Origin: Acidimicrobiales bacterium
GTDB lineage: Bacteria > Actinomycetota > Acidimicrobiia > Acidimicrobiales > CADCSY01
Direction of reading: 5' to 3'
Assembly: GCA_035540955.1 (NCBI GenBank)
Contig: DATLFP010000066.1
Span: forward strand, 3,055-67,054
DNA length: 64,000 nucleotides
Shown: in pieces, positions 28,388 to 44,274 of the stretch
How positions within the stretch are numbered: the stretch's first letter is position 1
How the letters are laid out: every line of letters starts with the position of its first letter
The notes under the pieces: generated by a model
What the model was told of the DNA's origin: nothing
What the model saw: only the letters and a program-made list of their open reading frames with translations
Database searches by the model: none
Made by a program: the position numbers and the translations under genes

Positions 28388-29134
28388 TCAGATCGGCAGC
28401 CGTGCGAACAGGGCGTGGGGCAGGTGCCGGAGGACGACCATCACCCACCGCATCGCCGACGGCGCCCACACGATCCGGGCGCCACGAGCCAGGCCGAGGT
28501 CGACGACCTCGGCCACAGCTTCGGGGGTCGTGGCCAGCGGCGGCACCCGCAACCCGGCGGTGAGCTTGGTCCTGACGAAGCCAGGGCGGACGACGAGCAC
28601 CTGCACACCCTGCGGCCGGAGCGCGTCACCGAGGCCGAGGGCGAAGGCGTCGATCCCGGCCTTGCTGGAGGCGTAGGCGAACAGGGACCGCCGGGGGCGC
28701 TCGGCAGCCACGGAGGACAGGACGACGAGGGCGCCGTGGCCCTGGGCGCTGAGCAGCCGACCCGCTTCGAGCGCGGCCGACACGGCACCCACGTAGTTCG
28801 TCGCCGCCATCTCGAGCGCCAGGCTCGGCTCCCGCTCGGCCGCCGCCTGGTCGTGCTGGACGCCGAAGGCCAGCACGACGGCGTCGAAGCCCCCGTGGTC
28901 GGCCCAGAGGCGCTCGAGGACGGCCCGGTGCTCGCCGGTCGCGAGGGCGTCGAACCACTCGACCGAGACGTCGGAGCCGGTGCGGGCCGCGAGGTCACCG
29001 GCGTCGACAGACCGCCCGGCGAGGACGACCGCCGCCCGGCGGGGCGCCGCCAAGCGCACCGCGATCGCCTGACCGATGTCGGATCCGCCGCCGAGCACCA
29101 GCACCCGCTGCACGGCGCCCAGCGCGTCCCTCAC
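28388..29134 (-). CDS. dprE2: decaprenylphospho-2'-keto-ribose reductase (DprE2-like SDR)
   Basis: VLVLGGGSDIGQAIA (Rossmann), YASSKAG (YxxxK), VVRPGFVRTKLT. It sits directly after dprE1 with a GTGA overlap at 29131-29134. The upstream 300+ codons of ORF 28388..30082 are out-of-frame shadow of dprE1. Confidence 0.8.
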   Translation of the reverse strand: MRDALGAVQRVLVLGGGSDIGQAIAVRLAAPRRAAVVLAGRSVDAGDLAARTGSDVSVEWFDALATGEHRAVLERLWADHGGFDAVVLAFGVQHDQAAAEREPSLALEMAATNYVGAVSAALEAGRLLSAQGHGALVVLSSVAAERPRRSLFAYASSKAGIDAFALGLGDALRPQGVQVLVVRPGFVRTKLTAGLRVPPLATTPEAVAEVVDLGLARGARIVWAPSAMRWVMVVLRHLPHALFARLPI

Positions 29135-30522
29135 GTTCGGGCTCCCCGGCCCAGCAGGTCGAGGCGGCGGGCGAGGTCCGACACCATGACACCGGCCGGG
29201 TCGAGGCCGGCCTGCACCGCTCGCCACTCGTCGAGGCGCGGGTACCAGGCCCGGACGAGGGCGGGATCGGAACGGCCGTCCTTGGCGAAGTAGCACCGCC
29301 CGCCCGCCTCGGTCACCCGCACGTCCAGCTCGTCGAGCAGGCCGGCGAGGTGGCGGGGGCCCACCGCGAAGTCGAGCGCCAACGTCCAGCCCGCGGTCGG
29401 GAACGACAGGGGCCCCGGCGTCCCCGGCCCGAAGCGCTTGAGCACGGCCAGGAACGATGCCGCGTGCGACCGGCTCAGGCGTTCGATCGCGTCGCGGAGC
29501 GCGTCTTCGGCCCCGAAGGGCACGACGCACTGGTACTGCACGAAGCCTCGCCGTCCATAGAGCCGGTTCCAGCCCGCCACCAGGTCGAGCGGGTAGAAGA
29601 ACCAGCCGTGGTGCTGTACCAGACCCCGGGCGCGCGCCGGGGCCTTGCGGAACCACAGCTCGTTGAACGCACCGACGGTGAGCCGGTTGACGAGGCCCGA
29701 CGGCACCCACGGGGGCGCCGGGACGCTCCGCGGCCGCGGCACCTCGAGCGCCGCGTGCCGTTCGCCGGAGGGGAGCTCGTCGGCCGTGGCGTGGCGACCC
29801 CTCGTCAGCACCGAACGGCCGAGCCCTCGCCCCACCGCCTGGCAGTCGATCCATGCCACCGAGTACAGGTAGTCGTCGTCGCCGTCGGTCATCAGCGCCA
29901 TGACCGTGTCGAGGTCCGGCGCCCGGTCGACGTCGACCAGGAGGCGTGAGGTCGCCACCGGGCGCAAGCGAACGGTGGCGTCGAGGATCACCCCTGTCAG
30001 CCCCAGCCCGCCGGCGGTGGCCCAGAACACCTCGGGGTCGTCGACGGGGCTGACCGACAGCACGCCGCGCCCCGGCGTCCACAGCGTCAGCGAATCGACG
30101 AACCGGACGAAGCTCCCGTCGACGTGGTGGTTCTTCCCGTGCACGTCGGCGGCGATGGCGCCACCGACGGTCACGTGCCGGGTGCCGGGGGTGACGGGTG
30201 GGAACCAGCCGTGGGGCAGGCCCACGTCGATCAGGTCGGCGATGCTCACACCGGCGCCGACGTGCGCGATGCCCGTCGACGGATCGAAGCCGAGGAACCG
30301 GCGGTGTCCCGAGAGGTCCAGGACCAGACCGCCACCGTTCTGGGCGGCGTCGTTGTAGCTGCGCCCGAGTCCGCGGGCGATCACCCCCCGGGCCGGCGCC
30401 CCCGAGGCCGCCTTCACCGCATCGTCACCGTCGGCGGCCCGGTGCACCGCGGCCGCCGATGGCGCCGTCCGTCCCCACCCGGTGAGGAGCTGGCGGGCTG
30501 CGTCAGGTGCCGGCACTGACAC
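29131..30522 (-). CDS. dprE1: decaprenylphosphoryl-beta-D-ribose 2'-oxidase (DprE1-like FAD enzyme)
   Basis: LTGWGRTAPS...ARGLGRSYNDAAQNGGG...TPGTRHVTVGGAIAADVHGKNHH...LKRFGPGTPGPLSFPTAGWTLALDF...YFAKDGR...YPRLDEWR...SDLARRLDLL aligns block-for-block with my memory of Rv3790. Confidence 0.85.
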   Translation of the reverse strand: MSVPAPDAARQLLTGWGRTAPSAAAVHRAADGDDAVKAASGAPARGVIARGLGRSYNDAAQNGGGLVLDLSGHRRFLGFDPSTGIAHVGAGVSIADLIDVGLPHGWFPPVTPGTRHVTVGGAIAADVHGKNHHVDGSFVRFVDSLTLWTPGRGVLSVSPVDDPEVFWATAGGLGLTGVILDATVRLRPVATSRLLVDVDRAPDLDTVMALMTDGDDDYLYSVAWIDCQAVGRGLGRSVLTRGRHATADELPSGERHAALEVPRPRSVPAPPWVPSGLVNRLTVGAFNELWFRKAPARARGLVQHHGWFFYPLDLVAGWNRLYGRRGFVQYQCVVPFGAEDALRDAIERLSRSHAASFLAVLKRFGPGTPGPLSFPTAGWTLALDFAVGPRHLAGLLDELDVRVTEAGGRCYFAKDGRSDPALVRAWYPRLDEWRAVQAGLDPAGVMVSDLARRLDLLGRGART

Positions 30523-31420
30523 CGAGCCCCACGAGCACGACCCAGCAGAGGCCGAGCGCCTGCAACGTGCGATCGCGCATGACGATCTCCTCCGGCGCCG
30601 ACCCCTCTCCCTGCTCCAAGCGGAGCGCGTAGTGGAGGATCCCCAGCACGAAGGGGATGATCGAGAGCTCGTACCAGATCTCGCCGCCCCCGATCTCCTG
30701 GGGCCGCTCGAACGCCCACAGGCAGTACGCGGCGAGGCACGACGCGGCCGACACCGACCGGACGAACCGGAGGAAGGGCACCGAGTAGTCGGCCAGCGTC
30801 GCCCGGATGGCCCCGGCGTCGACGCCGAGGTCGGCGTGCTCGGCTGATCGCTTGCCGGCGACGATGAACAGCGAGCCGAACCCGGCGACGATCAGGAACC
30901 ACTGGGAGATGGCCACGCCGGCGGCGGCGCCCCCGGCCACCGCCCGCAGCACGAACCCGGAGGCGACGGCGGCGATGTCGAACACGGCGATGTCCTTGAG
31001 CCGGTAGCTGTACGCGAGCTGCACGACCACGTAGGCGCCGACGACGGTGGCAAGCTGCCATCGCACCGCCAGCGCCGCACCGAGGCCGGCGAGGGCGAGC
31101 ACGGCACCCAGGACCACCGCGGTGCCGACCCGGATCTCCCCGGCGGCGACCGGGCGCCGGTGCTTCGACGGGTGAGCGCGGTCCGACTCGTGGTCGCGCG
31201 CGTCGTTGAGGCAGTAGACACCGCTCGAGACGAGGCAGAAGGCGACGAAGGCCGCTGCGGTGCGGAACGGCGTCCCACCTTCGAGGAGCGACCCAGCGGC
31301 GAACGGCGCGCCCAGGACCAGGACGTTCTTGGACCACTGCCGGGGTCGGATCAGGCGCACCACCGCCGGCACGCGAGAGGGCGACGGCACGGCGGCGGCG
31401 GGCGAGGCGGCGGCGTCCAT
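30503..31420 (-). CDS. ubiA: decaprenyl-phosphate 5-phosphoribosyltransferase (UbiA-family, Rv3806c-like)
   Basis: LIRPRQWSKNVLVLGAPFAAG...YCLNDARDHESDRAHPSKHRRPVAAGEI is the UbiA NDxxD motif in the Rv3806c-type context. About 8-9 TM helices. It lies immediately upstream of dprE1. Confidence 0.8.
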   Translation of the reverse strand: MDAAASPAAAVPSPSRVPAVVRLIRPRQWSKNVLVLGAPFAAGSLLEGGTPFRTAAAFVAFCLVSSGVYCLNDARDHESDRAHPSKHRRPVAAGEIRVGTAVVLGAVLALAGLGAALAVRWQLATVVGAYVVVQLAYSYRLKDIAVFDIAAVASGFVLRAVAGGAAAGVAISQWFLIVAGFGSLFIVAGKRSAEHADLGVDAGAIRATLADYSVPFLRFVRSVSAASCLAAYCLWAFERPQEIGGGEIWYELSIIPFVLGILHYALRLEQGEGSAPEEIVMRDRTLQALGLCWVVLVGLGVSAGT

Positions 31421-31525
31421 GGGGTCGGACGAGGGTAACCCCGAGCAACGCGGGCGCCGGGCCACGGTGGGCGCCGCCCTGCTGCCGTGCCGGCTGCCTC
31501 ACTCCCCTATCTTGTGCCACTCAGG

Positions 31526-33586
31526 GTGACCACGCACCAGACGACGCAGCCGCAGGAGATCGGTGCTCCGCGCATCGGCGCGCTCGACGGGCTGCGGGGG
31601 CTGGCGGTCGCCGGTGTCCTCGCCTACCACGCCGGCTTCGGGTGGGCGCGGGGCGGCTTCCTCGGCGTGTCGCTGTTCTTCACGCTCTCCGGGTTCCTGA
31701 TCACCACCCTCCTCCTCGGCGAGTGGGCGAGCTCCGGGCGGATCTCGCTCCGCGCGTTCTGGGCCCGGCGGGCGCGGCGACTCCTCCCGGCGGCGATGGT
31801 CGCGCTCGGCGGCATCGTCGTCTTCGGCGCCACCGTGGCTTCGGCGTCCCAGCTGCGCGATCTGCGCGGCGATGTGCTGGGCGCCCTCGGCTACGTCGCC
31901 AACTGGCGGTTCGTCGCCGCCGGGTCGTCCTACGGCGACCTGTGGTCCTCGCCCTCGCCGGTGCAGCACTTCTGGAGCCTGGCCATCGAGGAGCAGCTCT
32001 ATCTCGTGATCCCGCTCGTGGTCGCGGCGTCCCTCGCCGCGGCACGGGGCCGGCTCGGCGTCGTCGCCGCCGCGCTCGGGACGCTGCTGCTCGCGTCGGT
32101 CGGCGCCGGGCTGGTCGCCGGCGATGGGCTGCGCGCCTACTACGGCACCGATGTCCGCGCTGCCGAGCTGCTGGTCGGCGCCCTGCTCGCCGTGGCCGTC
32201 GCCGGCCGACCGGCGATCGAGCGCCATCCCGTGGTGCCCGTCGCGGCACCGGTGGCGCTCGTGGCGCTCGTGGTCGCGTGGGTGGCGACGAGCCAGACCG
32301 ATCCCCGCCTCTACCGCGGCGGCCTCCTCGCCCACGCCGTGCTGGCGGCGATGGTGATCGTGGGCAGCCGGTCCGGCGGGCCGATGGCCACCGCGCTCGA
32401 ATGGGCACCGCTGCGATGGCTCGGCCGGATCTCCTATGGCGCCTACCTGTACCACTGGCCCATCTTCCTGTGGCTCGACGAGACGCGGGTCGGCCTCTCC
32501 GGTGTCTGGCTCGCCGCCACTCGGGTCGCGGTGACGCTCGCCGCCGCCGCCGTGTCGGCTCGGGTGCTCGAGGAGCCGGTGCGGCGCGGCGCTCGCGTCC
32601 GCGGCCGGTTGGTGCCGGTGATCGCGGGAGCCGCCGCGGCAAGCGTCGCCGCCGGCGTCCTGCTCGTCACCGTGTCCGTGCCGGCCCCGGCCATCGGCGT
32701 CGAGCTCACGGGCGCATCGCGGCTCGTGGAGCCGTCCCGCGTCGCGCCCGCGCCGCTCGCCGTGGCACCCATCGTCGCGCCCGGCGCTGCGCCGGCCACC
32801 GCGCCCCTCGCGGACGCCACGACCATCGCGCCGCCCGCCGGTCCCGGCCCCGGTGTGCACATCGCCCCGGTCCCCCGCGCGCCGGGTGAGCGCCTGCGCG
32901 TCTACGTGGCGGGCGACTCGAACGCGTTCGTGCTGGGACTGAAGATGCTGCGCTGGGGCGAGCGCAACGGCGCCGACGTCTGGGCCAGCGGCTGGTTCGC
33001 CTGCCACATCGTCCCCGGTGGCACCTACCGATGGGCGGGCCAGCCCAAGCACACCGAGGACAAGTGCAACAACTGGAAGGAGACCCGCGCCCGGGAGATC
33101 GCCACGATCCAGCCCCACGTGGTCCTCGTGATCTACGGATCGTTCGACCTGCTCGACCGTCGGTGGGACGGCTCCGACGAGTGGACCCACATCGGCCGGC
33201 CCGACTTCGACCGCCTCCTCAAGCAGAACATCGAGGAGATGACCGACCTCCTCGCCGCCGGCGGCGCCCGGGTCATCTGGGCCACCTATCCCCGCACCCG
33301 CACGGGCGTCATCGACGGCGTGCCGCCACCCCGCGACTTCCCCGAGGTCGACGAGTACCGCGTGGCGCGGCTCAACACCTTCATCCGCGAGGTCACCGCC
33401 GCCCGGCCGTTCGCCGGCGTGATCGATCTGCGCCGGTACATGCAGGCGTGGCCGAACGGCGAGCTCGATCCCGAGCGCCGCCCCGACGGGATCCACCCCA
33501 GCGACCACGAAGCGGTGAACATCGCCGAGTGGGCCGCGCAACAGCTCATGTCGCGGATGGAGCGCGAGCGCGCCGCGACACCATGA
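31526..33586 (+). CDS. acyltransferase-3 (OafA/YrhL-type) membrane protein fused to a C-terminal SGNH domain
   Basis: LDGLRGLAVAGVLAYHAGF...GVSLFFTLSGFLITTLLL...RRARRLLPA is the AT3 signature. C-terminal RVYVAGDSNAF...DGIHPS is SGNH-like. The start is uncertain (GTG 31526 or ORF start 31487). Confidence 0.8.
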   Translation: MTTHQTTQPQEIGAPRIGALDGLRGLAVAGVLAYHAGFGWARGGFLGVSLFFTLSGFLITTLLLGEWASSGRISLRAFWARRARRLLPAAMVALGGIVVFGATVASASQLRDLRGDVLGALGYVANWRFVAAGSSYGDLWSSPSPVQHFWSLAIEEQLYLVIPLVVAASLAAARGRLGVVAAALGTLLLASVGAGLVAGDGLRAYYGTDVRAAELLVGALLAVAVAGRPAIERHPVVPVAAPVALVALVVAWVATSQTDPRLYRGGLLAHAVLAAMVIVGSRSGGPMATALEWAPLRWLGRISYGAYLYHWPIFLWLDETRVGLSGVWLAATRVAVTLAAAAVSARVLEEPVRRGARVRGRLVPVIAGAAAASVAAGVLLVTVSVPAPAIGVELTGASRLVEPSRVAPAPLAVAPIVAPGAAPATAPLADATTIAPPAGPGPGVHIAPVPRAPGERLRVYVAGDSNAFVLGLKMLRWGERNGADVWASGWFACHIVPGGTYRWAGQPKHTEDKCNNWKETRAREIATIQPHVVLVIYGSFDLLDRRWDGSDEWTHIGRPDFDRLLKQNIEEMTDLLAAGGARVIWATYPRTRTGVIDGVPPPRDFPEVDEYRVARLNTFIREVTAARPFAGVIDLRRYMQAWPNGELDPERRPDGIHPSDHEAVNIAEWAAQQLMSRMERERAATP

Positions 33587-34838
33587 GCACGCCCACGCCG
33601 ATGGCGGCGACCGGCACGGCCGGCACGTGGAAGCGCGGGTCCCCGAAGAAGATCAGCGGTGGCAGCAGCGCGCCGACACCGGTGAGGACGACCAGCAGCC
33701 CGGCGGGTGCGGCGCGGCGGACCAGGATGGCGAGACCGGCGACGCCGACCACGCCGGCGACCGCCCCGTACCAGTTGGCCACCGTCCGCAGGCGGTCACG
33801 GGTGCCGTCCGCCATCCATGGGTCGTCGCCGTAGGACTCCACCGCCGCCAACCCGTCGGCGTCGTCGGCGAAGAGGGCGCCGATCCGCCGGAAGACGAGG
33901 CGCAGCTCCTCGCCCGGGTGCCCGCGCACGAACTCGAGAGCGACTCGCCGGCCATGGGCATCCCGGGCGGTCTCGAACTCCGGCCGGTCGAGGGCGTCGA
34001 AGGGCCCGACGAAGCAGTCGTCGTTGGGGAAGTCGAAGCCGCCCGACGCCCCGAGGTGCCGGCTCATGCACAGGTTGTCGCCCGTGTTGGTCGACAGCGT
34101 GAGCTGGTCCATCACCATCGCGTTGCGGACCATCCACGGGATCAGCACGGCGACCGCCACCCCTGTGATCACCGCCGTCTGCGTGAGCGCCCGACGCCAT
34201 CCGGCACGCCCGGCCAGGAACACGACGAGCAGCAGCGGGAACACCGGCGCCGTGACGGGCCGCACCAGGGTGGCGGCGCCCAGCACGAGTCCCACGGTCA
34301 CGAGCCGCCACCGCTCCCACTGTCCAACCGGCCACGGGGCACTGACCCCGAGCAGCACCGCCACCAGCAGGAGGCACAGGAAGAGCGACTCGGTGAGAGC
34401 GGCGGCGGTGTGGAACACGAGGTTCGGCCAGAGCGCGAGGACGGCCGCGGCGGTGTACCCGGCGAGAGGGACGCCGGTGAGCCGGCGAGCCGCGAGGAAG
34501 GCGAGGACGATCGTCGCCAGCTGCCAGGCGATGTTGAGAGTGGCGACGATGCCGACCTCGGGGTGGGTGAGGCGGTCGAGCGGCCAGTGGTAGCCCAGCC
34601 ACATGAACGGGGCGAGGGCGAAGGCGTAGCCCGGCGGGTAGTACGCCGTCGGCGCGCCGTCGAGCAGCCGGTACCCGTTCCCGTTCGCCAGCTGCTGGCC
34701 GTACAGGTAGTAGAAGTTCGGATCGTGGAGCCCGCCGCCGGGCAAGCGGGCGGCGTAGAAGCACCAGACGACGCGCAGCACGAGGGCGACGGCGAGGATG
34801 GTGCCGAGGATCGCCCGCTCCTGCCTGGTCACAGTCAC
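33546..34838 (-). CDS. GT-C membrane glycosyltransferase (family 39/83-like)
   Basis: ILAVALVLRVVWCFYAARLPGGGLHDPNFYYLYGQQLANGNGYR...YYPPGYAFALAPF is the typical ArnT/PMT-like N-terminal loop. About 10 TM helices, 430 aa. Confidence 0.65.
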   Translation of the reverse strand: MTVTRQERAILGTILAVALVLRVVWCFYAARLPGGGLHDPNFYYLYGQQLANGNGYRLLDGAPTAYYPPGYAFALAPFMWLGYHWPLDRLTHPEVGIVATLNIAWQLATIVLAFLAARRLTGVPLAGYTAAAVLALWPNLVFHTAAALTESLFLCLLLVAVLLGVSAPWPVGQWERWRLVTVGLVLGAATLVRPVTAPVFPLLLVVFLAGRAGWRRALTQTAVITGVAVAVLIPWMVRNAMVMDQLTLSTNTGDNLCMSRHLGASGGFDFPNDDCFVGPFDALDRPEFETARDAHGRRVALEFVRGHPGEELRLVFRRIGALFADDADGLAAVESYGDDPWMADGTRDRLRTVANWYGAVAGVVGVAGLAILVRRAAPAGLLVVLTGVGALLPPLIFFGDPRFHVPAVPVAAIGVGVLMVSRRARAPSAT

Positions 34839-34876: not shown

Positions 34877-36031
34877 ATGACCACGCCGCCGCTGCTCGAT
34901 CTCGTGGTCCCGGTGTTCAATGAGGAGGCCGCGCTCGAGCCGAGCATCCGTGCGCTCGCCGCTCACCTCGCCGGGATGCCGTTCTCCTGGCGCGTGTCGA
35001 TCGTCGACAATGCGAGCACCGACCGCACGGGCGAGATCGCGGCGGCGCTCTCGGAGGAGCTCACCGGTGTCCGCCTCCTGCGACTCGACGAGAAGGGCCG
35101 GGGCCGTGCCCTCCGAGCGGCGTGGATGGCCAGCGATGCGGAGGTCGTCGCCTACACCGACGTCGACCTGTCCACCGACCTCGCCGCCCTCGAGCCTCTC
35201 GTCGACGCCGTCCGGACCGGCGCGGGCGACATCGCCATCGGCTCGCGCCTGGCGCCGGGGTCGATCGTCACCCGCGGCGCCAAGCGCGAGCTCGTGTCGC
35301 GCTCGTACAACAGCATCATCCAGGCGATGACGCGCGCCGGCTTCAGCGATGCCCAGTGCGGCTTCAAGGCACTCCGCGCAGACGTGGCGCGAGCCCTGTT
35401 GCCCGAGGTGGAGAACGAGAACTGGTTCTTCGACACCGAGCTCCTCCTGCTGGCCGAGCATCACGGCCTCCGGATCGCGGAGGTGCCGGTGGCCTGGGTC
35501 GACGACCCGACCTCGTCGGTCGACATCCGGCAGACGGCGATGGAGGATCTCCGGGGCCTTTTGCGCCTCACCAGGCGCCTCCTCGGCCAGCGCGCTCCGG
35601 CGGCGCCGATCCTGCAGCGCCAGGTCATCTCCTTCGCCGCCGTCGGAGCGTTCACGACGGTCGTGCACGTCGTCCTGTTCCTGGCGCTCCGCGCCGGCAT
35701 CGGGTCGTTGCCGGCGAACGCGGTCGCGCTCGCGGTCGCCACGCCGGTGAACACCGCCCTGAACCGGCTCGTGACCTTCTCCGTCCGCGGCCGTCGACGT
35801 CTGCTGCGGGATCACGCCCAGGCCGGTGCCATCTTCCTCGCCGGCCTGGCGATGACGTCGCTGGCCATCATCGGCTTCGGCCTGATGTGGCCCGATCGCC
35901 CGGCCCTCGTGGGCGTCGTCGCCGTCCTCGCTGCCAACGCCACCATCACCCTCGGTCGGTTCCTGCTCCTTCGCGCCTGGGTCTTCAACCCTGCGCGCCG
36001 CCGTCAGCCACCGCCCTCGCCGGCGCCGTAG
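34877..36031 (+). CDS. bifunctional GT2 polyprenyl-phosphate glycosyltransferase / GtrA-like membrane domain
   Basis: LDLVVPVFNEEAAL...IVDNASTDRT...YTDVDLSTD...QCGFKA (GT2, DxD). The C-terminal ISFAAVGAFTTVVHVVLFLAL...NRLVTF is GtrA-like with 4 TM helices. Confidence 0.8.
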   Translation: MTTPPLLDLVVPVFNEEAALEPSIRALAAHLAGMPFSWRVSIVDNASTDRTGEIAAALSEELTGVRLLRLDEKGRGRALRAAWMASDAEVVAYTDVDLSTDLAALEPLVDAVRTGAGDIAIGSRLAPGSIVTRGAKRELVSRSYNSIIQAMTRAGFSDAQCGFKALRADVARALLPEVENENWFFDTELLLLAEHHGLRIAEVPVAWVDDPTSSVDIRQTAMEDLRGLLRLTRRLLGQRAPAAPILQRQVISFAAVGAFTTVVHVVLFLALRAGIGSLPANAVALAVATPVNTALNRLVTFSVRGRRRLLRDHAQAGAIFLAGLAMTSLAIIGFGLMWPDRPALVGVVAVLAANATITLGRFLLLRAWVFNPARRRQPPPSPAP

Positions 36032-37905
36032 GGGTCCGGGTCGAGGAACAGCCCCACGGTGAGGCGGTCCCAGCGGTAGCGGAGGGCGGCATAGCGAGCC
36101 ACCTCGGCAGCCCGGTCGTCGGGGATCTCGAGCAGGCCGTCGTTCACGAGGGCGGCCAGCTCGCCGAAGGCGAGCAGCTGCTCGGCCGTCGGCGTCCCGT
36201 CGGCGAAGGAGAGGAGGGCGCCGTTGGATCGGGCGGCCCGGCCGCTGTCGCTCAGCTCGACGGGCAGGTCGACCAGCCGCCGCTCGAGGGCATGGAGCTC
36301 GCGGACCTCCTCGACGTCGAGCCCGGGGACGTAGGCGACCCTCCGGGTCCCGTCGGGCACGGTGCTCGCAGCATCGCCCTCGAGCGCGAACACGCGGGCC
36401 GCAGCCTCGCCTCGATCCGCGCGATCCCCGCCCAGCTGCCGCGCCCACACCGGATCGTCGACCGTGAAGTCGATCCCTCGCTCCTGCATCACCGCCAGCA
36501 GTGCGGAGGTCCACGGCTCGGCGAACCGCAGGCGACTCGTGTCGTACACGACCGTCCCGACGCCGGCGAGCGAACCGAGCTGGCCGCTCAGCTCCCGCAC
36601 GATCGGGATGGCCGCCCGATCGGCCTGCGGGCCGGCGGGCACGGCATGGGTCGGCAAGGTGAGGATGGCCAGCCCGGCGGCCGCGACCCCCAGCGCTCGC
36701 ACCGCCCACCGCGCCGGGAGCAGCGCGAGGGCGGCGGCCACCGTGGCGAACGCGCCGATGGGCCAGAGGTACCGGACCTGGTGCGGCGGGACGCCAACCC
36801 CGCCGACGGGCAGCCGAACGGTGACGGCGGCGGCAACGAGCGCGGCGAAGGCTGCGACCCCGACGACCGAGCGCGTCTCGGGGGTCACCGACCGGCGTGC
36901 CCGGAGCCCGGCCCCGGCGAGCACCACCCCAACGAGGAGCAAGCCGACGACCGCGACCGCGAGGGAGGGCAGGCCGCTCACGTTCGGACGATCGCCGACC
37001 AGCGGCGCCTGGCCCGGCGGAACGCGGAGCGCGTCGCCGAAGCCGGGCCGTCCCCACCACGGCGGCGTGGCGAGGACCTCGGCGGTGATGCGGATCCCGA
37101 GCGCCGGGCCGACCGTCTCCTGGTCGACACCGACGCCGCTGACCAAGGTTCCGAGGTTGCCCTCGCCCGCGATCTGATCGGCGAGGGGCTGCGCCCAGCA
37201 GACCGCCGCGACCACGGCGCTCACACCGAAGGCGACGAGCACGTCCCGGCCGTGGCGACGCACCAGCCACGCGACGCCGAGGGCGACGAGGGGTGGGACC
37301 AGCAGGGTGTAGCTGAGGTGGGTCTGGACGATGAGGCTCGCCACACCGACCGCCACCGGCATGGCCAGCAGGTCGCCCCGCACCATGCCGACGACGAGCA
37401 CCACGAGCAGGAGCACGGGGAACAGCAGGGTGTGTGGCTGCCAGGGGTCGTAGAGCAGCTCGCTGCCCATCGACCATGCCAGGCCGGCACACGCAGCCAA
37501 TGACGCGAACGCGAGTCGGGTGCCGCCCGCTCGCTGCCCGAACCACGCCATGAGCCCGATGGCGGCGAGATGCACGAGCAGGACCCCCACCGCCAGCCCC
37601 CCGGATCCGCCGAGCTTGGCCGGGATGGCGAGGAGGTCGAACAGCAGCGGACCGGGATGATTGACGTTCTCACCGATCGGGATCGACGCCGACGACCACG
37701 TGCCGAGCAAGGGGTGATGCGACGTGAAGACGTCGCGGGAGCGGATCAGGAAGTTGCCGTTGTCGCCGATCGCCAACCACCCGTCGCGCAGCGCCCGGAT
37801 CGTCGACACCACGAACGGGAGGGCCACGACCGCCGCCAGCCCCGCGATCAGCCTGCCGTCTCGAGAGGGCGGTTCGATGCTGGCCGGTCGCCGCAGCGCG
37901 GTCAT
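36004..37905 (-). CDS. large polytopic membrane protein with C-terminal soluble domain, uncharacterised (GT-C candidate), paralogue A
   Basis: ATG 37905 overlaps the upstream stop (ATGA). MTALRRPAS...GDNGNFLIRSRDVFTSHHPLLGTWSS...VNHPGPLLFDL...YDPWQPH...GDLLAMPVAVGVASLIVQTHLSY. About 13 hydrophobic helices, then about 230 hydrophilic residues. Confidence 0.65.
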   Translation of the reverse strand: MTALRRPASIEPPSRDGRLIAGLAAVVALPFVVSTIRALRDGWLAIGDNGNFLIRSRDVFTSHHPLLGTWSSASIPIGENVNHPGPLLFDLLAIPAKLGGSGGLAVGVLLVHLAAIGLMAWFGQRAGGTRLAFASLAACAGLAWSMGSELLYDPWQPHTLLFPVLLLVVLVVGMVRGDLLAMPVAVGVASLIVQTHLSYTLLVPPLVALGVAWLVRRHGRDVLVAFGVSAVVAAVCWAQPLADQIAGEGNLGTLVSGVGVDQETVGPALGIRITAEVLATPPWWGRPGFGDALRVPPGQAPLVGDRPNVSGLPSLAVAVVGLLLVGVVLAGAGLRARRSVTPETRSVVGVAAFAALVAAAVTVRLPVGGVGVPPHQVRYLWPIGAFATVAAALALLPARWAVRALGVAAAGLAILTLPTHAVPAGPQADRAAIPIVRELSGQLGSLAGVGTVVYDTSRLRFAEPWTSALLAVMQERGIDFTVDDPVWARQLGGDRADRGEAAARVFALEGDAASTVPDGTRRVAYVPGLDVEEVRELHALERRLVDLPVELSDSGRAARSNGALLSFADGTPTAEQLLAFGELAALVNDGLLEIPDDRAAEVARYAALRYRWDRLTVGLFLDPDPYGAGEGGG

Positions 37906-39761
37906 GGGCCGGACAGCGTGGCGCCGACGGGCACGAGGAACACCGCTCCCGGGCTTCCGAGCGCGAGCATCCGCTCGATCCGCTCTCTGGTGGCAGCCGG
38001 CAGCCGCGTGTCGATGGACAGGCCGAAGAGGTTGCCGTCGACGAGGTCGATGTCGCCCTCGGGGAAGCCGGCGGCCCGCAGGTCGGTGATGACGCGCTTC
38101 CGGAGGGCGTCGTACTCCGCCACGTCGCGCCCATCGCGCGGGTCGTGATGCGCGAGCTCGACCGCGTCGGGGTGGCGCCGCCAGAGCTCGACGAACCGGC
38201 CGACCGCGAGGTGCACCTCCTCCTGCGCCTCGCCGGGCTGCAGGACCCGATGCGGCGTGAGGGGGACGCGCCAGGTCTCGGTCACACCCACCCGGAACCC
38301 ACGCCGATCGAGCGCGCTGAGCAGTCCCATCCCCTGCGAGCCGATGTAGAAGCTGTCGTCCCAGGTGATCAGGTAGGTCGTGGCCCGGTCGAGGGCGGCG
38401 GCCGTCGGGGGCACCACCTCGGCGAGCACTTCGGACAGCTGAGGCGCCGGCGGTTCGGCGACGGCCGCCCGGACCGTCAGCAGCCCCGCGCTCACCACGC
38501 TGATCGCGACGAGGACGGCGCCGACCGCGCGAGTGGCTCGCTCGCGGTCCACGACGCGCCACACCGTCATGCCCACCGACAGCAGCAGGAGCGCGGCCGT
38601 CCCCCACGACCACAGCATGAGGTAGTACCAGACCTTGCCGAAGATCCGGCTCATCGACACCACGCCGAGCAGCAGGGCGCTGCCGACCACGACGTTCAGC
38701 CGGTTGATGGATGTGTACCGGTGCCGCCAGGCCACCACCGCCGCGACGACCCAGCCCAGCAACGTCACGAGGCCGGGCAGGATCGAGCCGCCGGCATCAC
38801 CTGAAGACGTGGCGAGCGATCCGAGCGAGCTCCCCTGGCGGCTCAGGAACGACGTGACGTCCAGGTGGCGCAACCCGAGCCGAACCCCCTCGACGACGCC
38901 GACGGTCTCGCCTTCCTCCTGCGGCGGTGAGGTGAAGTGATCCCACAGCATCGACAGGTTGCCGGGGTCCTCGGTGATCTGGTCGACCACGACCGGCGAC
39001 CAGAGGAGGACGCCGAGGGCGACTGAGGCCACTGCCCATCGCCCGATCGACCGCCGCGTTGCGGCCGCGGCGTGCTCGTCGGCGGTCCGGCGCCACCACC
39101 ACACCAGCCCGCCGCCGGCGACCGCGGCGAGGCCGAGGCACAGGCCGAGGTAGGGCACGTGGGTCTGGGCGGCGATGGAGGCGGCCAGGACGGCCACCGG
39201 GAGCATCGGCAGATCACCGTCGAGCACCGACCACACGCTCAGGAGGACGAGCACCCACCACAGCAGCGGGAGGTAGGGGTTCCAGGGCTCGGCGAGGGTC
39301 TCGATGCCGTAGCCCCCCATGAGGACCGCGAGCAGGGCGGTGACGGCAACGGCCACCCGCAGGCCGCCGCGGCGGAAGGCGACGAGCACCGCCGCCGAGG
39401 CGGCGATCCCGTTGAGCACCAGCGCCCCGGCCTGCATCCCCCACGGCGTCCCTCCGAACGCTCTCCATGTCGGCCAGAGCGCGTAGAAGCTGGCGGGCCC
39501 CGGATGGCTGCCCTGCTCCGGGAACCGTCCGATCCGGCCGGGGAGACCGATCAGCGGGGTGCGGGAGCTGAAGATGTCGCGCAGGCGCAGCTCGGCCATC
39601 GCGTGGTCGAGGACCGGGTACCACGGCGGTCGTCGCAGGGCGACGATACCGACCACCAACGGCACGATGAGGATGGCCATCAGCGCGACGAGCAACCACC
39701 GGGCCTGCCGCACCGGCCGGAGTGTAGGAGGCGGAGGCGTCAGCTCCGATCCAGCAGCCAC
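37902..39761 (-). CDS. large polytopic membrane protein with C-terminal soluble domain, uncharacterised (GT-C candidate), paralogue B
   Basis: It shares ordered blocks with paralogue A: LRLRDIFSSRTPLIGLPGR...GSHPGPASFYAL...AEPWNPY...GDLPMLPVAVLAASIAAQTHVPY. 619 aa. Confidence 0.65.
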   Translation of the reverse strand: MAAGSELTPPPPTLRPVRQARWLLVALMAILIVPLVVGIVALRRPPWYPVLDHAMAELRLRDIFSSRTPLIGLPGRIGRFPEQGSHPGPASFYALWPTWRAFGGTPWGMQAGALVLNGIAASAAVLVAFRRGGLRVAVAVTALLAVLMGGYGIETLAEPWNPYLPLLWWVLVLLSVWSVLDGDLPMLPVAVLAASIAAQTHVPYLGLCLGLAAVAGGGLVWWWRRTADEHAAAATRRSIGRWAVASVALGVLLWSPVVVDQITEDPGNLSMLWDHFTSPPQEEGETVGVVEGVRLGLRHLDVTSFLSRQGSSLGSLATSSGDAGGSILPGLVTLLGWVVAAVVAWRHRYTSINRLNVVVGSALLLGVVSMSRIFGKVWYYLMLWSWGTAALLLLSVGMTVWRVVDRERATRAVGAVLVAISVVSAGLLTVRAAVAEPPAPQLSEVLAEVVPPTAAALDRATTYLITWDDSFYIGSQGMGLLSALDRRGFRVGVTETWRVPLTPHRVLQPGEAQEEVHLAVGRFVELWRRHPDAVELAHHDPRDGRDVAEYDALRKRVITDLRAAGFPEGDIDLVDGNLFGLSIDTRLPAATRERIERMLALGSPGAVFLVPVGATLSGP

Positions 39762-41764
39762 CCGAGCACGAGGGCCGCATCATCGGGGTCGACGTGCGTG
39801 CCGTCGGTCTCCCGCAGATCGCTGCACGGCCCGTCGGGACCCGACGGGCACAGGATCTCGGCGAGATCGATGACCGGCACCTCGAGGTCGCCGGCGAGTG
39901 CGAGCAGGCGGCTGCGGATGCACGCCGAGCGCTCCAGGTGGTCGTCGGTGGCGAGGAAGCGGGCCTTGTCGCCGCCCCACGCCGGCAGGACCAACACCAC
40001 CCGGCCGGCGTGCGACCGCAGGTAGTCGATCCGCCGCGTGACATCCTCCGCGTACCACTGGAGGTCGTCGCAGGGCCCGACCCAGCGATCGCCCACCAGG
40101 CGGTCGACGATCGGCGCGTTGCCGACCATGAGCAGCGCCACGTCGACCAGGAGTGACGGATCCTCCACCGCCTTGGCGTAGGTGACGGGCCACTCGTCGC
40201 AGTCAGCGGGGAGCGGGAGGATCTGCCCGGCCCGGCCGCGGGCCGTCGGGATGTCGACGGCGCCGTCACAACCCTCGATGGCCGCATCGATGACAACGAC
40301 GTCCGGTCGGTCGAACGTCGCCGCTGCGTCGCGCAGGAGCCAGTCGGCGATGGAGTCTCCGAAGATGGCGACGACGCGCGGGCCCGTGGCGGTGGGCGCG
40401 ACGGCGTCCGGCACGAACGTGTCCGGTGCGATCCTGCTCGACGCCACCGCGTTCGGCGCCGAGTCGGCCGCCATCACCGGCACCGTCCCATCCGAGGAGC
40501 GGGCCGACGCGGACACGACGAGTGCCATGGCGAGCACGAGCTCCTCGGGTTCCTCGACCAGGGCCTCGAACGCGACGAGCGCCGGCGACTCGGTCGAAGC
40601 TGGTCTCGGTGGCACCGGCGCGCCCGCGGCCACGAGCACCACCGGTTCACTGGTGCGAACGGGCCGGTCGACCGTGGGCACCAGCACCACCACGGCGGCG
40701 GCCACCACCAACAGCGTGCCCGCCGCCGCCGGGACGAAGGCGCGCCGCGTCGACAGGCGGACACCGGTGCGGATCGGTCGCTCGACGAGGTAGTACGACG
40801 CCACCGTGAGCCCGCCGGTCAGCGCCAGCTTCTCGGCGACCCCGGCGTCTCCGAGGATCGTGAAGACCGGCCAGTGGAAGAGGTACAGCCCGTAGCTGAT
40901 GCGCCCGATCCACGGGAGTGGCTCCGTCGACAGCAGGCGCGCCACCGGCCCCGGCGCCTGCACGCCGAGGATGAGCGCGGCCGAGAGCAGGGCGAAGAGG
41001 GGCAGACCGCCGGCATACGCCCACCCACGGCCGGCCGGCGTGAACGCGGCGAGGGCGACGACGGCGACGAGGCTCGGTGCTGCCAGCCGGGCCGCCCACG
41101 CCGGGACCGGTCGCCCGTGGAGCGCGGCCGCGAGCGCCGCTCCGGCCAGGATCTCCGGGAACCGGGCCCACGATGCGAAGTAGGCGGCATCGCCACCTGC
41201 GACGCGGGCGGTCACCAACGCCGACGCGGCGAAGACGACGAACCCGACCGCCAGGATGCGTCCGACGCGGCGAGGCGCGACGGTGGTGAGCCCCGCCATC
41301 GCCAGCGGCCACACCCAGTAGAACTGCTCCTCGATCGCGAGCGACCAGAAGTGGTCGACCGGCGATGGTGCCAGGAACAGGTCGGCGTAGGAGCGCTCGC
41401 TCAGCAGCTGGTGCCAGTTGGCCACCTGGAACACCCCGGCGAGCACGCCGCCGCGCAGGTCGCTCCGCGCTGCCACCTCGCCGAGCGCCGCGAGGAGGGC
41501 AATCCCGAGGAGCACCAGCATGGCGGCGGGCAGCAGCCGCCGCATGCGCCGCACGTAGAAGGCCCGCACGTCGATCCGACCACTCGCCGACCGCTCCGCG
41601 AGCAGCAGTGACGTGATGAGGAAGCCCGACAGCGTGAAGAACACCGAGACCCCGAGATAGCCGCCCTCGAGCCACGGCGCGCCGAGGTGGAAGACCAGGA
41701 CCAGCGCGATCGACAGCGCACGGACGCCGTCGAGCGCCGGTCGGTACCCGAGCTTCCCCCCCAT
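39740..41764 (-). CDS. acyltransferase-3 (OafA-type) membrane protein fused to a C-terminal SGNH domain (second copy)
   Basis: LDGVRALSIALVLVFHLGAPWLEGGYLGVSVFFTLSGFLITSLLL...RRMRRLLPAA. C-terminal VVAIFGDSIADW...DGTHV is SGNH-like. Confidence 0.8.
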   Translation of the reverse strand: MGGKLGYRPALDGVRALSIALVLVFHLGAPWLEGGYLGVSVFFTLSGFLITSLLLAERSASGRIDVRAFYVRRMRRLLPAAMLVLLGIALLAALGEVAARSDLRGGVLAGVFQVANWHQLLSERSYADLFLAPSPVDHFWSLAIEEQFYWVWPLAMAGLTTVAPRRVGRILAVGFVVFAASALVTARVAGGDAAYFASWARFPEILAGAALAAALHGRPVPAWAARLAAPSLVAVVALAAFTPAGRGWAYAGGLPLFALLSAALILGVQAPGPVARLLSTEPLPWIGRISYGLYLFHWPVFTILGDAGVAEKLALTGGLTVASYYLVERPIRTGVRLSTRRAFVPAAAGTLLVVAAAVVVLVPTVDRPVRTSEPVVLVAAGAPVPPRPASTESPALVAFEALVEEPEELVLAMALVVSASARSSDGTVPVMAADSAPNAVASSRIAPDTFVPDAVAPTATGPRVVAIFGDSIADWLLRDAAATFDRPDVVVIDAAIEGCDGAVDIPTARGRAGQILPLPADCDEWPVTYAKAVEDPSLLVDVALLMVGNAPIVDRLVGDRWVGPCDDLQWYAEDVTRRIDYLRSHAGRVVLVLPAWGGDKARFLATDDHLERSACIRSRLLALAGDLEVPVIDLAEILCPSGPDGPCSDLRETDGTHVDPDDAALVLGWLLDRS

Positions 41765-41802
41765 GCAACTCTCTCGAGAAATCGGTGCAAACCGGTCGAA
41801 CT

Positions 41803-41876
41803 CAGGACAGCTCGAACCGCTCCCAGCAGGACAGCTCCGACTGTGCCACGAAACCCGACCAGATCCATGTCACATG
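41803..41876. promoter_or_regulatory. intergenic promoter/operator candidate: 11-nt direct repeat plus perfect 11-nt palindrome
   Basis: CAGGACAGCTC occurs at 41803-41813 and again at 41826-41836, a 23-nt register. CATGTCACATG at 41866-41876 is a perfect odd palindrome. The region lies between divergent genes and is less GC-rich. Confidence 0.25.
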
Positions 41877-41962
41877 GCCCTGGTTCCCCCCGCTCGACCG
41901 GCGTGCACTGGACCCATGACCGCGGCCAGGCGTCCCGCCCGCGACCTGTGTGGTCGCGTCCG

Positions 41963-43246
41963 GTGACACCGCGCCTCTTGCTCGTCCTGCTCCCCGCTGC
42001 CGTCGCCCTCCTGCTCGTCCCGCTCGTCCAGCGCGCGACCGCGCAACCGGGCGCGGCGCCCGTGTCCGCGAGCTGCCGCGGTGAGCAGTGGGTCGCCGCC
42101 TGGCGCGCCGCTCCGCAGGGGTCGTCCCTCGGGCGCCCCGACGACGAGCCGTGGGGCGACGCGGACGGACTCGCCCGCACCTTCGACGACCAGACGCTTC
42201 GGATGGTGCTGACGCCCAGCATCGACGGCTCCGGGTTGCGAGTCCGGTTCGGCAACCGCTTCGGCCCGGCGCCGGTCACGATCACCGCTGCCACCATCGG
42301 GACCAGCGCCGGCGGGGCGGCGGTCGATCCCGCCACGGTGCAGGGCGTGACGTTCGGCGGCGACCGGTCGGTCACCATCGGCGCCGGCGCCGCCGTCGTC
42401 AGCGATCCGCTGTTCGGCCCCGTCGCGGGTGGCGTGCCGCTCTCGGTGACGATGCACGTCGCCGGGCCGGCCGTGCTGGATCACCACCAGTGGGCGCTCG
42501 CCCCGCAGTACCTGGCGCCGGCGGGCACCGCCCACCTGGACGACGCGACGGGCACACCGTTCTCCGAGGAGCTAACCGGCTGGTACGGCGTCTCCGGCGT
42601 GGACGTGCTCGCGCCTCGCGGCACCGGTGTCGTCGTCGCGCTCGGAGACTCGATCACCGACGGGATCGGCTCGACGCCGGGCGCCGACCGCCGGTGGCCG
42701 GATGTGCTGGCCCGCCGGCTCGCCGCCGGCGACGACGCCTTCGCGGTGGTCAACGCCGGCATCGCCGGCAACCACGTCGTGACGAGCGGGCTCACCTCCG
42801 TGACCGCCATCGGCCCGAGCCTGCTCGACCGGTTCGCCACGGACGCGCTGGCGGTCGACGGGCTCACCGACCTCCTGGTCTTCGCCGGCATCAACGACAT
42901 CTACATGGCGGGCGACGGCACCGACATCGCTCCCGACCTGATCGCTGCGTACGAGCAGGTGGCGGCCACGGCACGCGCCGCCGGCGCCCGGGTGCTCGTC
43001 GCCACCATCACTCCGGCGTCCCTGAGCGCCGACAAGGAGGAGGTCCGCGTCCGGGTCAACGACGCGCTACGGGCGAGCGATGCGTTCGACGCGGTGGTCG
43101 ACTTCGACGCGGCGGCGCGCGATCCCGAAGACCCCTCCCGTCTCCGGCCCGAGTGGGATGCCGGCTTCGCCCACCTCAACGACGCCGGCTACGCCGCGCT
43201 CGCCGCTGCCGTGCCTCTCGATGCCCTGCAGGGCGCCAGCTGCTGA
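41963..43246 (+). CDS. secreted SGNH/GDSL hydrolase
   Basis: GTG 41963 gives a signal-like VTPRLLLVLLPAAVALLLVPLVQRATAQP. Block I is VVALGDSITDG, with FAGINDI and a later DxxH-type region HLNDAGY. An alternative ATG is at 41867. Confidence 0.7.
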   Translation: MTPRLLLVLLPAAVALLLVPLVQRATAQPGAAPVSASCRGEQWVAAWRAAPQGSSLGRPDDEPWGDADGLARTFDDQTLRMVLTPSIDGSGLRVRFGNRFGPAPVTITAATIGTSAGGAAVDPATVQGVTFGGDRSVTIGAGAAVVSDPLFGPVAGGVPLSVTMHVAGPAVLDHHQWALAPQYLAPAGTAHLDDATGTPFSEELTGWYGVSGVDVLAPRGTGVVVALGDSITDGIGSTPGADRRWPDVLARRLAAGDDAFAVVNAGIAGNHVVTSGLTSVTAIGPSLLDRFATDALAVDGLTDLLVFAGINDIYMAGDGTDIAPDLIAAYEQVAATARAAGARVLVATITPASLSADKEEVRVRVNDALRASDAFDAVVDFDAAARDPEDPSRLRPEWDAGFAHLNDAGYAALAAAVPLDALQGASC

Positions 43247-43251
43247 CGCCG

Positions 43252-44274
43252 TCAGGGAAGGCGCTTGAGGAGCGCCATGACCCCCATCCTGACCGGCGAC
43301 TGGTGGTGGCTGGCACCGGCAGCCTCGCCGCGGTGGGTGCGGAACCACTCGTAGGACTCGATGACCATCGAGACGTTGGAGTGCAGCGGTGACCACTCCA
43401 GCTCCTCGCGTGCCCGCGTCGTGTCGAACCACAGCGACTCCGAGTACAGGAGCCAGTGGTAGGGGGCGAACGGGGCGAGGCCGAGGCCGGAGAGCACGCG
43501 CATGCCCCAGCGGGCCGGGGCGACCGGGACCGATCGGACCCGCGCGCCGGTCGCCGCGTGATCGCAGAGCGCTTCGAGGGTCTCGCGCATGGTCCCGAAC
43601 TCGGTGGCCCCGATGTTGTACGTGCGAGGTCCCGGTCGGTCCGCGGCGCGGAGGATGGCGTCGGCCAGGTCTTCGGCGTGCACGAGCTGGTACCGGTTGT
43701 CACCCGGACCCATGACGAAGACGGGCGCGCCGGCCGCCACCAGCTCGAAGAGGACGGCCATGATCCCGAGGCGCCCGTGACCCAGGATCGTCCGCGGCCG
43801 CACGACGGTCACGTCGAGGCCGCCGGCGGCCGCCTCACGGCACAGCGCCTCGGCCTCCGCCTTGGCCCGGCCGTACGCTTCGAGCGGCCGTGCCGGCGCC
43901 GACTCGTCGACCGGGTTGTGGTCGGGGATCCCGAAGATGGCGCTCGACGAGGTGTGCACGACCTTGCCCACGCCGGCGTCGCGCGCCGCCAACAGCACGT
44001 TGGCGGTGCCGGCCACGTTGACCGACCAGAACAGCGCCCGGTCCTTGGCGAGCGGCACCTGGGCGACGTTGTTGAGAACGACGTCGACGCCCTCGCACGC
44101 GGCCCGTACCGCGGCGAGGTCGCGCACGTCGGCCACGACCGCCCTCACCCCCGGGGCCGGCGCCGGCTCGTGCAGGTCGAGCACGACCGCCTCGTCGCCG
44201 GCGGCCGCCACGCGGGCGGCGAGGATCGAACCGAAGTAGCCGGCTCCGCCGGTGATCAGGACCCGGCGGGTCAC
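43252..44274 (-). CDS. NAD-dependent epimerase/dehydratase family protein (extended SDR)
   Basis: VLITGGAGYFGS, HTSSSAIFG and YGRAKAEAE (YxxxK). GTG 44274 overlaps the upstream stop (GTGA). Confidence 0.85.
   Translation of the reverse strand: MTRRVLITGGAGYFGSILAARVAAAGDEAVVLDLHEPAPAPGVRAVVADVRDLAAVRAACEGVDVVLNNVAQVPLAKDRALFWSVNVAGTANVLLAARDAGVGKVVHTSSSAIFGIPDHNPVDESAPARPLEAYGRAKAEAEALCREAAAGGLDVTVVRPRTILGHGRLGIMAVLFELVAAGAPVFVMGPGDNRYQLVHAEDLADAILRAADRPGPRTYNIGATEFGTMRETLEALCDHAATGARVRSVPVAPARWGMRVLSGLGLAPFAPYHWLLYSESLWFDTTRAREELEWSPLHSNVSMVIESYEWFRTHRGEAAGASHHQSPVRMGVMALLKRLP

Follow-up and report, generated by a model that had tools for sequence, protein, structure and literature searches.

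Two translationally coupled, paralogous membrane proteins of Acidimicrobiia are predicted GT-C glycosyltransferases outside the named families

In a stretch of 64,000 nucleotides of DNA from an Acidimicrobiales bacterium (assembly GCA_035540955.1, contig DATLFP010000066.1, positions 3,055 to 67,054; hereafter called the window, with a G+C content of 70 to 77%), two adjoining genes, here named A and B, encode polytopic membrane proteins that a preliminary description of the sequence had noted as a tandem pair of no recognised family. The models and comparisons described below make it very probable that both proteins are GT-C glycosyltransferases. In the explanation that we favour, which we hold with moderate confidence when the source of the donor is included, A and B would be two catalytically competent paralogous enzymes of the ArnT/PMT-like (GT-C_A) part of the superfamily. 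Each would take a sugar from a polyprenyl-monophosphate sugar at the outer face of the membrane and pass it to a glycan of the cell envelope or, with lower probability, to a protein. The donor would most likely be supplied by a candidate synthase with GT2 and GtrA/DPMS-TM domains that is encoded beside gene B.

Calling of open reading frames (ORFs) placed both genes on the minus strand at the coordinates given in the preliminary description. Gene A (37902-39761) is the upstream member of the pair and starts either with GTG at 39761, giving a protein of 619 amino acids, or with GTG at 39713, giving 603 amino acids; gene B (36004-37905) is the downstream member, starts with ATG and encodes 633 amino acids. 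The public gene call for A comprises 603 amino acids, consistent with the second start, and the homology between the A and B families begins near residue 17 of A in hhalign alignments. No clear Shine-Dalgarno sequence was found for either start of A. Gene A stops and gene B starts within one ATGA at 37902-37905, which can be read straight from the sequence (ccATGAcc on the minus strand), as had been reported before, and which points to translational coupling. The G+C content at third codon positions was 0.91 for B and 0.92 for A, as expected for genuine genes of a high-GC genome. None of the RNA-seq runs searched contained the locus; it was present in DNA runs from soil metagenomes.

In a BLASTP comparison, A and B showed 32% identity across 279 N-terminal residues (E-value 1e-18). 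Family alignments were obtained from protein searches and comprised 91 sequences for family B and 79 for family A. When profiles of the two families, each purged of the other paralogue, were compared with hhalign, they aligned over 568 columns (residues 13 to 628 of B, residues 17 to 616 of A) with a probability of 100% and an E-value of 1.1e-50. Because this alignment extends to residue 628 of B and residue 616 of A, the C-terminal domains are homologous too, and A and B are, as judged from their sequences, paralogues over their full length. The four motifs from which the paralogy had originally been deduced, R(S/L)RD(V/I)F(T/S)S, HPGP, (D/E)PW(Q/N)P and GDL-M-PVAV--AS---QTH-(S/P)Y, were all recovered, and their cores are invariant in both families. 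The invariant core residues are D52, R59, D62, P87-G88-P89, W160, P162 and H201 (A numbering).

As the preliminary description had stated, the proteins do not belong to a named family: A and B gave no match to Pfam-A or NCBIfam models at an E-value of 1 or below. The same was true, at this threshold, for the profiles AftA_N/C (PF12250/PF12249), Arabinose_trans/Emb (PF04602) and GT-C_AftD (PF11847), the last of which, as a positive control for the scan, matched the product of a neighbouring gene (1448 amino acids) at 5.2e-94. When the 79 members of family A were scanned singly, PMT_2 (PF13231) matched weakly in 4 of them (best E-value 5.8e-6) and PTPS_related in 5, both being GT-C families. A further link was provided by an alignment of 17 homologues, taken from related loci, of a PMT_2 protein that is encoded in the window (22773-24392, minus strand; PMT_2 E-value 5e-15). 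The family A profile aligned with this PMT_2-type family over 212 columns with a probability of 94.8% and an E-value of 5.4e-8 (92.5% in another run). Comparisons of family B with the GT87-like and PIG-V-like families of neighbouring genes, and of family A or family B with the GT2-GtrA protein, were not significant. A search of PDB chains with the profiles of family A, family B and the PMT_2-type family gave chance matches to G protein-coupled receptors and designed proteins only (E-value above 0.01), and the PMT_2 protein of the window (PMT2b) used alone gave no match.

The fold was predicted with AlphaFold2, which yielded models with a predicted local distance difference test score (pLDDT) of 94.8 and a predicted TM-score (pTM) of 0.94 for B, and a pLDDT of 90.0 and a pTM of 0.91 for A. 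In Foldseek searches of the PDB, the best match of B was ArnT (5f15, E-value 9.7e-5, TM-scores 0.45 and 0.51), followed by a second ArnT structure (5ezm) and EmbB; EmbC, ALG12, AglB, ALG3, STT3, Pmt4, DPY19 and AftD (6wby) followed with weaker E-values. The best match of A was again ArnT (5f15 with an E-value of 4.5e-6 and TM-scores of 0.49 and 0.55, 5ezm with an E-value of 7.6e-6; TM-scores to ArnT between 0.49 and 0.56), and ALG9, STT3 and AftA (8if8, E-value 5.7e-4) were also significant, with Pmt4 and EmbC weaker. All matches with an E-value of 0.001 or below, three for B and five for A, were GT-C enzymes with a Foldseek probability of 1.00. Transporters and membrane pyrophosphatases reached probabilities of at most 0.38 and TM-scores of at most 0.18. 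A transporter or flippase identity, also in the form of a DUF flippase, was an outcome that the preliminary description had named as speaking against its proposal; the Foldseek results do not support it.

The helices of the models and hydropathy analysis together indicated about 11 transmembrane helices in A and B, rather than the roughly 13 estimated earlier, with the N-terminus inside. The density of lysine and arginine in the loops agrees with the positive-inside rule, being 0.23 inside and 0.05 outside for B and 0.17 inside and 0.08 outside for A. Both proteins thus have the GT-C topology of 7 to 13 transmembrane helices and a cytoplasmic N-terminus. Because the number of helices is odd and the N-terminus lies inside, the soluble C-terminal domain is predicted to be extracytoplasmic. 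In the models it is an alpha/beta domain comprising residues 416-633 of B (36007-36660, minus strand) and residues 434-619 of A (37905-38462, minus strand), i.e. about 218 and 186 amino acids, close to the previous estimate of 200.

A candidate active site was found in the first extracytoplasmic loop (EL1), which comprises residues 42-105 of A (39447-39638, minus strand) and residues 41-99 of B (37609-37785, minus strand). EL1 of A contains the invariant residues D52, R59, D62 and H86-P87-G88-P89, and EL1 of B contains D48, R55, D58, G85 and P86, equivalent to those of A column for column. A conserved acidic residue in this loop, for which the preliminary description had recommended a search, is thus present: D52 of A and D48 of B are invariant across 81 sequences of both families and lie 8 to 11 residues past the first transmembrane helix, on the outer side. 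In hhalign alignments, D52 of A coincides with the aspartate of WLDEAL, a sequence invariant in the PMT_2-type family, and HPGP with the GHPP of that family. The first aspartate of the EL1 motif is an active-site residue common to ArnT (D55/E56), Pmt1 (D77/E78) and Emb (D281/D282) (PMC7801869). At the end of EL1 of ArnT, K85 within the sequence FEKPP is in contact with the carrier-lipid phosphate, and HPGP of A and B holds the matching place. We propose from these correspondences that D52 and D48 may serve as the catalytic base or as an acceptor-binding aspartate, and that H86 of A and H83 of B may form part of a phosphate/sugar pocket. The remaining motifs are distributed over further outer loops, with (D/E)PW(Q/N)P in EL2, QTH in EL3, and W254 and N268 (numbered as in A) within EL4 or at its border. 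R130 of A, its equivalent R125 of B, and D183 of A are exceptions among the invariant polar residues, which otherwise map to the predicted outer face. Since both proteins keep every shared invariant residue of this face, including the aspartate of EL1, neither paralogue looks like a dead partner.

To our mind, the GT-C part of the preliminary description is borne out by the fold, the PMT_2-type profile link and the EL1 aspartate, whereas its emphasis on Aft enzymes is disfavoured, with ArnT as the nearest structure and no match to any Aft or Emb profile. The likeness to ArnT (GT83), an undecaprenyl-phosphate-L-Ara4N:lipid A transferase, extends over about 600 aligned columns and includes the core with its N-terminus inside, juxtamembrane helices in EL1, an aspartate soon after the first transmembrane helix, a basic-Pro-x-Pro element where EL1 ends and a C-terminal domain that is extracytoplasmic. 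Like A and B, ArnT is moreover encoded beside a GT2 polyprenyl-phosphate-sugar synthase (ArnC in E. coli). The differences are likewise clear. The identity in the structural alignment is 13 to 16%, A and B do not match the Pfam PMT_2 model, and they have 11 transmembrane helices compared to 13 in ArnT. Furthermore, A and B carry D-(H/L/N) and H/N-P-G-P where ArnT carries D-E and E-K-P-P, and they form a coupled paralogous pair and come from Acidimicrobiia. The latter are bacteria of Gram-positive lineage and so presumably lack lipid A. Because the profile thresholds were not reached and the second acid of the DE/DD motif is absent, we assign A and B to a new family of the GT-C superfamily, outside GT83, GT39, GT53, GT85 and GT89.

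The size of this family was estimated with a combined A/B profile run against 1.84 billion cluster representatives (50% identity). It matched 7,189 proteins with an E-value of 1e-3 or below, 5,726 at 1e-10 or below and 3,322 at 1e-30 or below, the weakest of which may belong to other GT-C families. All sampled members were named "hypothetical protein". For the analysis of the genomic context, the 79 best of 206 relatives in GTDB were used, with one genome per species. All loci with a class label belong to Acidimicrobiia (Iamia, Ilumatobacter, Microthrixaceae, Acidimicrobiaceae and isolate IMCC26256, locus L050), and the others are labelled merely Actinomycetota, Actinomycetes or "uncultured bacterium". 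The A/B family is large, specific to one class as judged from the labelled loci, and wholly unannotated. Two metagenome-assembled genomes (loci L037 and L049) are labelled Bifidobacterium breve yet contain the A-B pair with the synteny typical of Acidimicrobiia; these labels are almost certainly wrong.

The pair itself is conserved. A tblastn search of the 79 loci located A no more than 10 kb from B in 69; in 49 of the 79, A directly precedes B on the same strand. The start of B was taken as the in-frame start codon nearest to the stop codon of A, a rule that favours small gaps; counted in this way, 31 of the 49 junctions can be read as a 4-nt NTGA overlap, 5 as a 1-nt overlap and 7 as a 1-nt gap, and 47 have a gap of at most 7 nt. 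In our judgement, 31 exact 4-nt overlaps are probably far more than chance would give. Some loci contain extra copies of B (e.g. L003, L027 and L050), and in a few (L057, L076 and L078) B is accompanied by the GT2-GtrA gene with no A nearby. The conservation of the pair across the loci of the class implies that the duplication giving rise to A and B predates the radiation of the Acidimicrobiia and that coupled expression has been retained.

The gene next to B in the window (34877-36031, plus strand, 384 amino acids) encodes the GT2-GtrA/DPMS-TM protein (PF00535, 6.7e-23; PF04138, 1.5e-13), a candidate polyprenyl-phosphate sugar synthase. It adjoins the pair as the preliminary description had noted, converging with B so that the 3' ends overlap by 28 nt (36004-36031). 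Among the NCBIfam models, all of which scored below their cut-offs for the GT2 domain, AglJ was the best, and the top ones included Dol-P-hexose transferase, ArnC and PpgS, i.e. polyprenyl-phosphate glycosyltransferases. Adjacency, counted from projected gene ends, could be evaluated in 68 loci. In 29 of these the GT2-GtrA gene immediately neighbours B, and 23 of the 29 have it downstream on the strand of B. Since most relatives have it co-directional and immediately downstream of B, the arrangement in the window is a local inversion. The co-directional arrangement is also seen in an independently annotated contig of 1.8 Mb (L080), in which A (598 amino acids) is followed by B (684 amino acids, 4-nt overlap) and a GT2 gene (537 amino acids, 1-nt overlap).

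A second set of partners is formed by genes for a GMC oxidoreductase (45302-46942) and two short-chain dehydrogenase/reductase (SDR) "epimerases" (44271-45305 and 43252-44274), all on the minus strand and assigned by Pfam, with NCBIfam matches below cut-off only. As listed, the GMC ORF begins with 80 arginine-rich amino acids that are probably an untranslated 5' over-extension; the two SDRs resemble HpnA, OleD and 3-beta-HSD. In most relatives this module is located directly upstream of A, with one of its SDR genes, Epi1, immediately upstream of A in 18 loci. When the 33 loci whose 10-kb flanks are complete were examined, the GMC gene was found in 26, the SDR genes in 25 and 24, the GT2-GtrA gene in 21 and the gene for a further membrane protein, of 593 amino acids in the window, in 20. 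The genes for synthesis of decaprenylphosphoryl arabinose (DPA) were much rarer in these loci (DprE1 in 4, DprE2 in 5, UbiA in 1), as was the AftD-like gene (5). The conserved partners of A and B are the GT2-GtrA synthase and the GMC/two-SDR module, not the DPA genes. With regard to the donor, for which a DPA- or polyprenyl-phosphate-sugar had been suggested, the GT2-GtrA-linked polyprenyl-phosphate sugar is accordingly the better supported part of that suggestion, whereas linkage to DPA is not conserved.

The layout of the locus corresponds to that of three-component glycosylation systems such as GtrA/GtrB/GtrX, CsbB/GtcA/YfhO and the pentofuranose system PPPRS/MATE/GT136 (Kelly et al. 2024; PMC11127046), in which a polyprenyl-phosphate-sugar synthase, a small GtrA-type transmembrane module and a GT-C enzyme are encoded together. 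Three-component systems can hold auxiliary SDR epimerases that alter the lipid-linked sugar (PMC11127046). For these reasons we favour the product of the GT2-GtrA protein as the donor. In contrast to the known systems, the synthase and the GtrA-type domain are fused at the A/B locus, two GT-C paralogues take the place of one, and a GMC flavoenzyme is present in addition to the SDRs. GT136, which was compared by description only (Kelly et al. 2024), has a beta-rich C-terminal carbohydrate-binding module, whereas the C-terminal domains of A and B are alpha/beta.

Several observations weigh against the assignment of A and B as GT-C enzymes fed by the GT2-GtrA synthase. The AlphaFold structures are predictions, and their similarity to ArnT is moderate (TM-scores of 0.45 to 0.56, Foldseek E-values of 1e-4 to 1e-6). 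The DD/DE motif lacks its second acid, which is replaced by histidine in A of the window (leucine in the family consensus) and by asparagine in B. The mapping of the motifs onto the active site is positional, based on sequence alignment and topology, on the motifs of ArnT and on the alignment of A with PMT_2. To this must be added the lack of a Pfam match of their own, and also the comparison of family B with the PMT_2-type family, which was not significant (0.7%); because B alone gives no significant profile match, it is tied to that family through A only. With respect to the donor, the GT2-GtrA gene is convergent with B in the window and is not co-transcribed with it, in 39 of the 68 evaluable loci it is not directly adjacent to B, and a complete DPA pathway is encoded in the same island.

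This pathway is the basis of an alternative that we regard as unlikely, namely that A and B build or branch an arabinan as arabinofuranosyltransferases that depend on DPA and are functionally analogous to AftA, AftB and Emb. The window contains genes for DprE2 (28388-29134, NCBIfam equivalog score 273.8, cut-off 250), DprE1 (29131-30522, 561.3, cut-off 500) and a decaprenyl-phosphate phosphoribosyltransferase (UbiA/DPPR synthase; 30503-31465, 362.3, cut-off 207), all on the minus strand. In the ORF list, DprE1 and DprE2 overlap, an ORF of 564 amino acids (28388-30082) being over-extended. At 4.5 kb from B, the trio lies where DPA genes had been placed before (about 5 kb away), and together with an AftD homologue 9.6 kb from the pair it shows that the "arabinan-type island" of the preliminary description is real. 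DprE1 and DprE2 were also found within 10 kb of A/B in five other loci (L014, L038, L041, L059 and L061), and in three (L048, L072 and L077) UbiA immediately precedes GMC-Epi2-Epi1-(A)-B. In agreement with this alternative, A and B share with AftA (GT85), AftB (GT89) and AftD of Mycobacteriales the GT-C fold, predicted in their case, and the location in an island with DPA-synthesis genes; they are similar in size to AftA and AftB, and AftA, EmbB, EmbC and AftD are among the Foldseek matches, AftA matching A and AftD, weakly, B. However, the two proteins match no Aft or Emb profile, ArnT and not an Aft enzyme is the nearest structure, no AftB structure was found within the top 50 Foldseek matches, and the island has its own AftD homologue. 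In the gene neighbourhoods, DprE1, DprE2 and UbiA occur in 4, 5 and 1 of the 33 full-flank loci, compared to 21 to 26 for GT2-GtrA, GMC and the SDRs. Where DprE2 does occur near the pair, in the five loci mentioned above, its adjacent gene is a homologue of the 593-amino-acid protein rather than A or B, as it is in L122. In a converse analysis of 42 metagenome loci of at least 8 kb centred on DprE1, the UbiA-DprE1-DprE2 trio was present in 35 and an A-like gene in 1; these loci mostly show 45 to 59% identity and probably come from other taxa, so that they have little bearing on linkage in Acidimicrobiia and show no more than that DPA genes can do without A/B.

It is quite improbable, in our view, that A and B are PMT-like protein O-glycosyltransferases, which would transfer a sugar from polyprenyl phosphate to secreted or membrane proteins. 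The sole link at the sequence level is indeed to PMT_2 and PTPS_related, Pmt1-Pmt2 is a heterodimer of paralogues reminiscent of the coupled A-B pair, and a synthase of the DPMS type with GT2 and transmembrane domains is encoded next to it. On the other hand, Pfam PMT_2 also takes in ArnT-like transferases acting on lipids and glycans, two clearer PMT_2 proteins are already encoded at 21655-24392, and A and B lack MIR domains and other hallmarks of PMT enzymes. The surrounding GT4, GT2, AftD-like and AT3 genes, moreover, look like polysaccharide assembly. That A and B are not glycosyltransferases at all and instead are transporters, flippases or polymerase/ligase-type proteins, or that one of them is an inactive scaffold, is very improbable: the absence of a family annotation and a weak Foldseek match to the O-antigen ligase WaaL (probability 0.54 to 0.60) are outweighed by the poor transporter matches and by the retention of the invariant outer-face residues in both paralogues.

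Returning to A and B as ArnT/PMT-like enzymes supplied by the GT2-GtrA synthase, we envisage for each a cytoplasmic N-terminus, 11 transmembrane helices, an outward EL1 and an extracytoplasmic C-terminal domain of about 200 amino acids. EL1 would carry the catalytic aspartate (D52 of A, D48 of B) and the HPGP element in the place of the phosphate-binding Glu-Lys-Pro-Pro of ArnT. Before transfer, the sugar might be remodelled by the GMC-oxidoreductase/two-SDR module, and DPA from the same island would be a second candidate donor. By analogy, the GMC protein and the two SDRs could carry out a redox epimerisation of a lipid-linked sugar similar to that of DprE1/DprE2, using non-homologous enzymes. 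The conserved 4-nt overlap indicates that A and B are produced together, and they might therefore perform successive steps on one acceptor or form a heteromer like EmbA-EmbB or Pmt1-Pmt2. The latter are paralogous GT-C pairs that act as complexes, EmbA and EmbB are encoded side by side, and structures of EmbB, EmbC, Pmt1 or Pmt4 are among the Foldseek matches of A and B. In contrast to these pairs, a complex of A and B is suggested only by the overlap, a few loci contain B-like genes without A, and neither protein has Emb-type carbohydrate-binding modules or MIR domains. A more far-reaching proposal, which we put forward as speculation and consider improbable, is that A-B is an obligate heteromeric GT-C enzyme across Acidimicrobiia that attaches an undescribed sugar to the envelope, the donor being made by the GT2-GtrA protein or a UbiA-type phosphoribosyltransferase and remodelled in its lipid-linked form by the GMC protein and the two SDRs as a non-homologous analogue of DprE1/DprE2.

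The pair is part of a 35-kb island that encodes six or seven GT-C enzymes: A, B, the AftD-like protein, three others and probably the 593-amino-acid protein. The AftD-like protein (49395-53741, plus strand; 1448 amino acids with F5/8 type C domains) has relatives near A-B in 11 of the 79 loci and also in L080. This gene suggests the presence of a polymer containing arabinofuranose outside the Mycobacteriales. The 593-amino-acid polytopic protein (46916-48697, plus strand) belongs to no family, has at least seven transmembrane helices and carries a pair of glutamates (EE) right after the first; in hhalign comparisons with A/B it reached weak probabilities of 44 to 51%. As it is adjacent to DprE2 elsewhere, a role as a DPA-dependent GT-C enzyme is more plausible for this protein than for A/B. 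The three others of GT-C type are a 430-amino-acid protein with a sub-threshold GT87 match (33546-34838, minus strand), a PIG-V/PMT_2-like protein (21655-22929, minus strand) and the clear PMT_2 protein described above. A free-standing second GT2 gene (48709-49443) and a GT4 gene are also present.

Acyltransferase-type genes are interspersed among the glycosyltransferase genes at 31487-33586 (plus strand), 39740-41764 (minus strand) and 41687-43246 (plus strand). They comprise a GDSL hydrolase gene and two AT3 genes whose products end in SGNH/DUF459-type domains, an arrangement suggesting that the same glycan of the envelope is O-acylated. The AT3-SGNH gene at 39740-41764 (PF01757, 4.7e-28; PF19040) is located directly upstream of A, probably in the same operon. 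This gene (AT3b) was found near A/B in just 14 of the 79 loci, and the acyltransferase-type genes are not conserved neighbours of the pair. A local dip in G+C content to 0.67 was observed at 24001-26000, around a flavin amine-oxidase-like gene (24349-25860, plus strand), compared to 0.71 to 0.75 in the rest of the island.

Soils, fresh waters and the sea harbour abundant Acidimicrobiia. Our literature search found no paper that deals with Acidimicrobiia in connection with an arabinofuranosyltransferase, DprE1, DPA chemistry or cell-wall sugars. The finding reported here widens a known enzyme class and does not introduce a new principle, as coupled paralogous GT-C enzymes have precedents in EmbA-EmbB and Pmt1-Pmt2. 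It provides the basis for a new family model and possibly a new CAZy family. Homologues of DprE1, DprE2, DPPR synthase and AftD exist in Acidimicrobiia, which points to envelope polymers containing arabinofuranose beyond the Mycobacteriales. The assignment to the GT-C superfamily, together with the candidate catalytic aspartate and the conserved partners, turns what were "hypothetical proteins" into testable enzymes.

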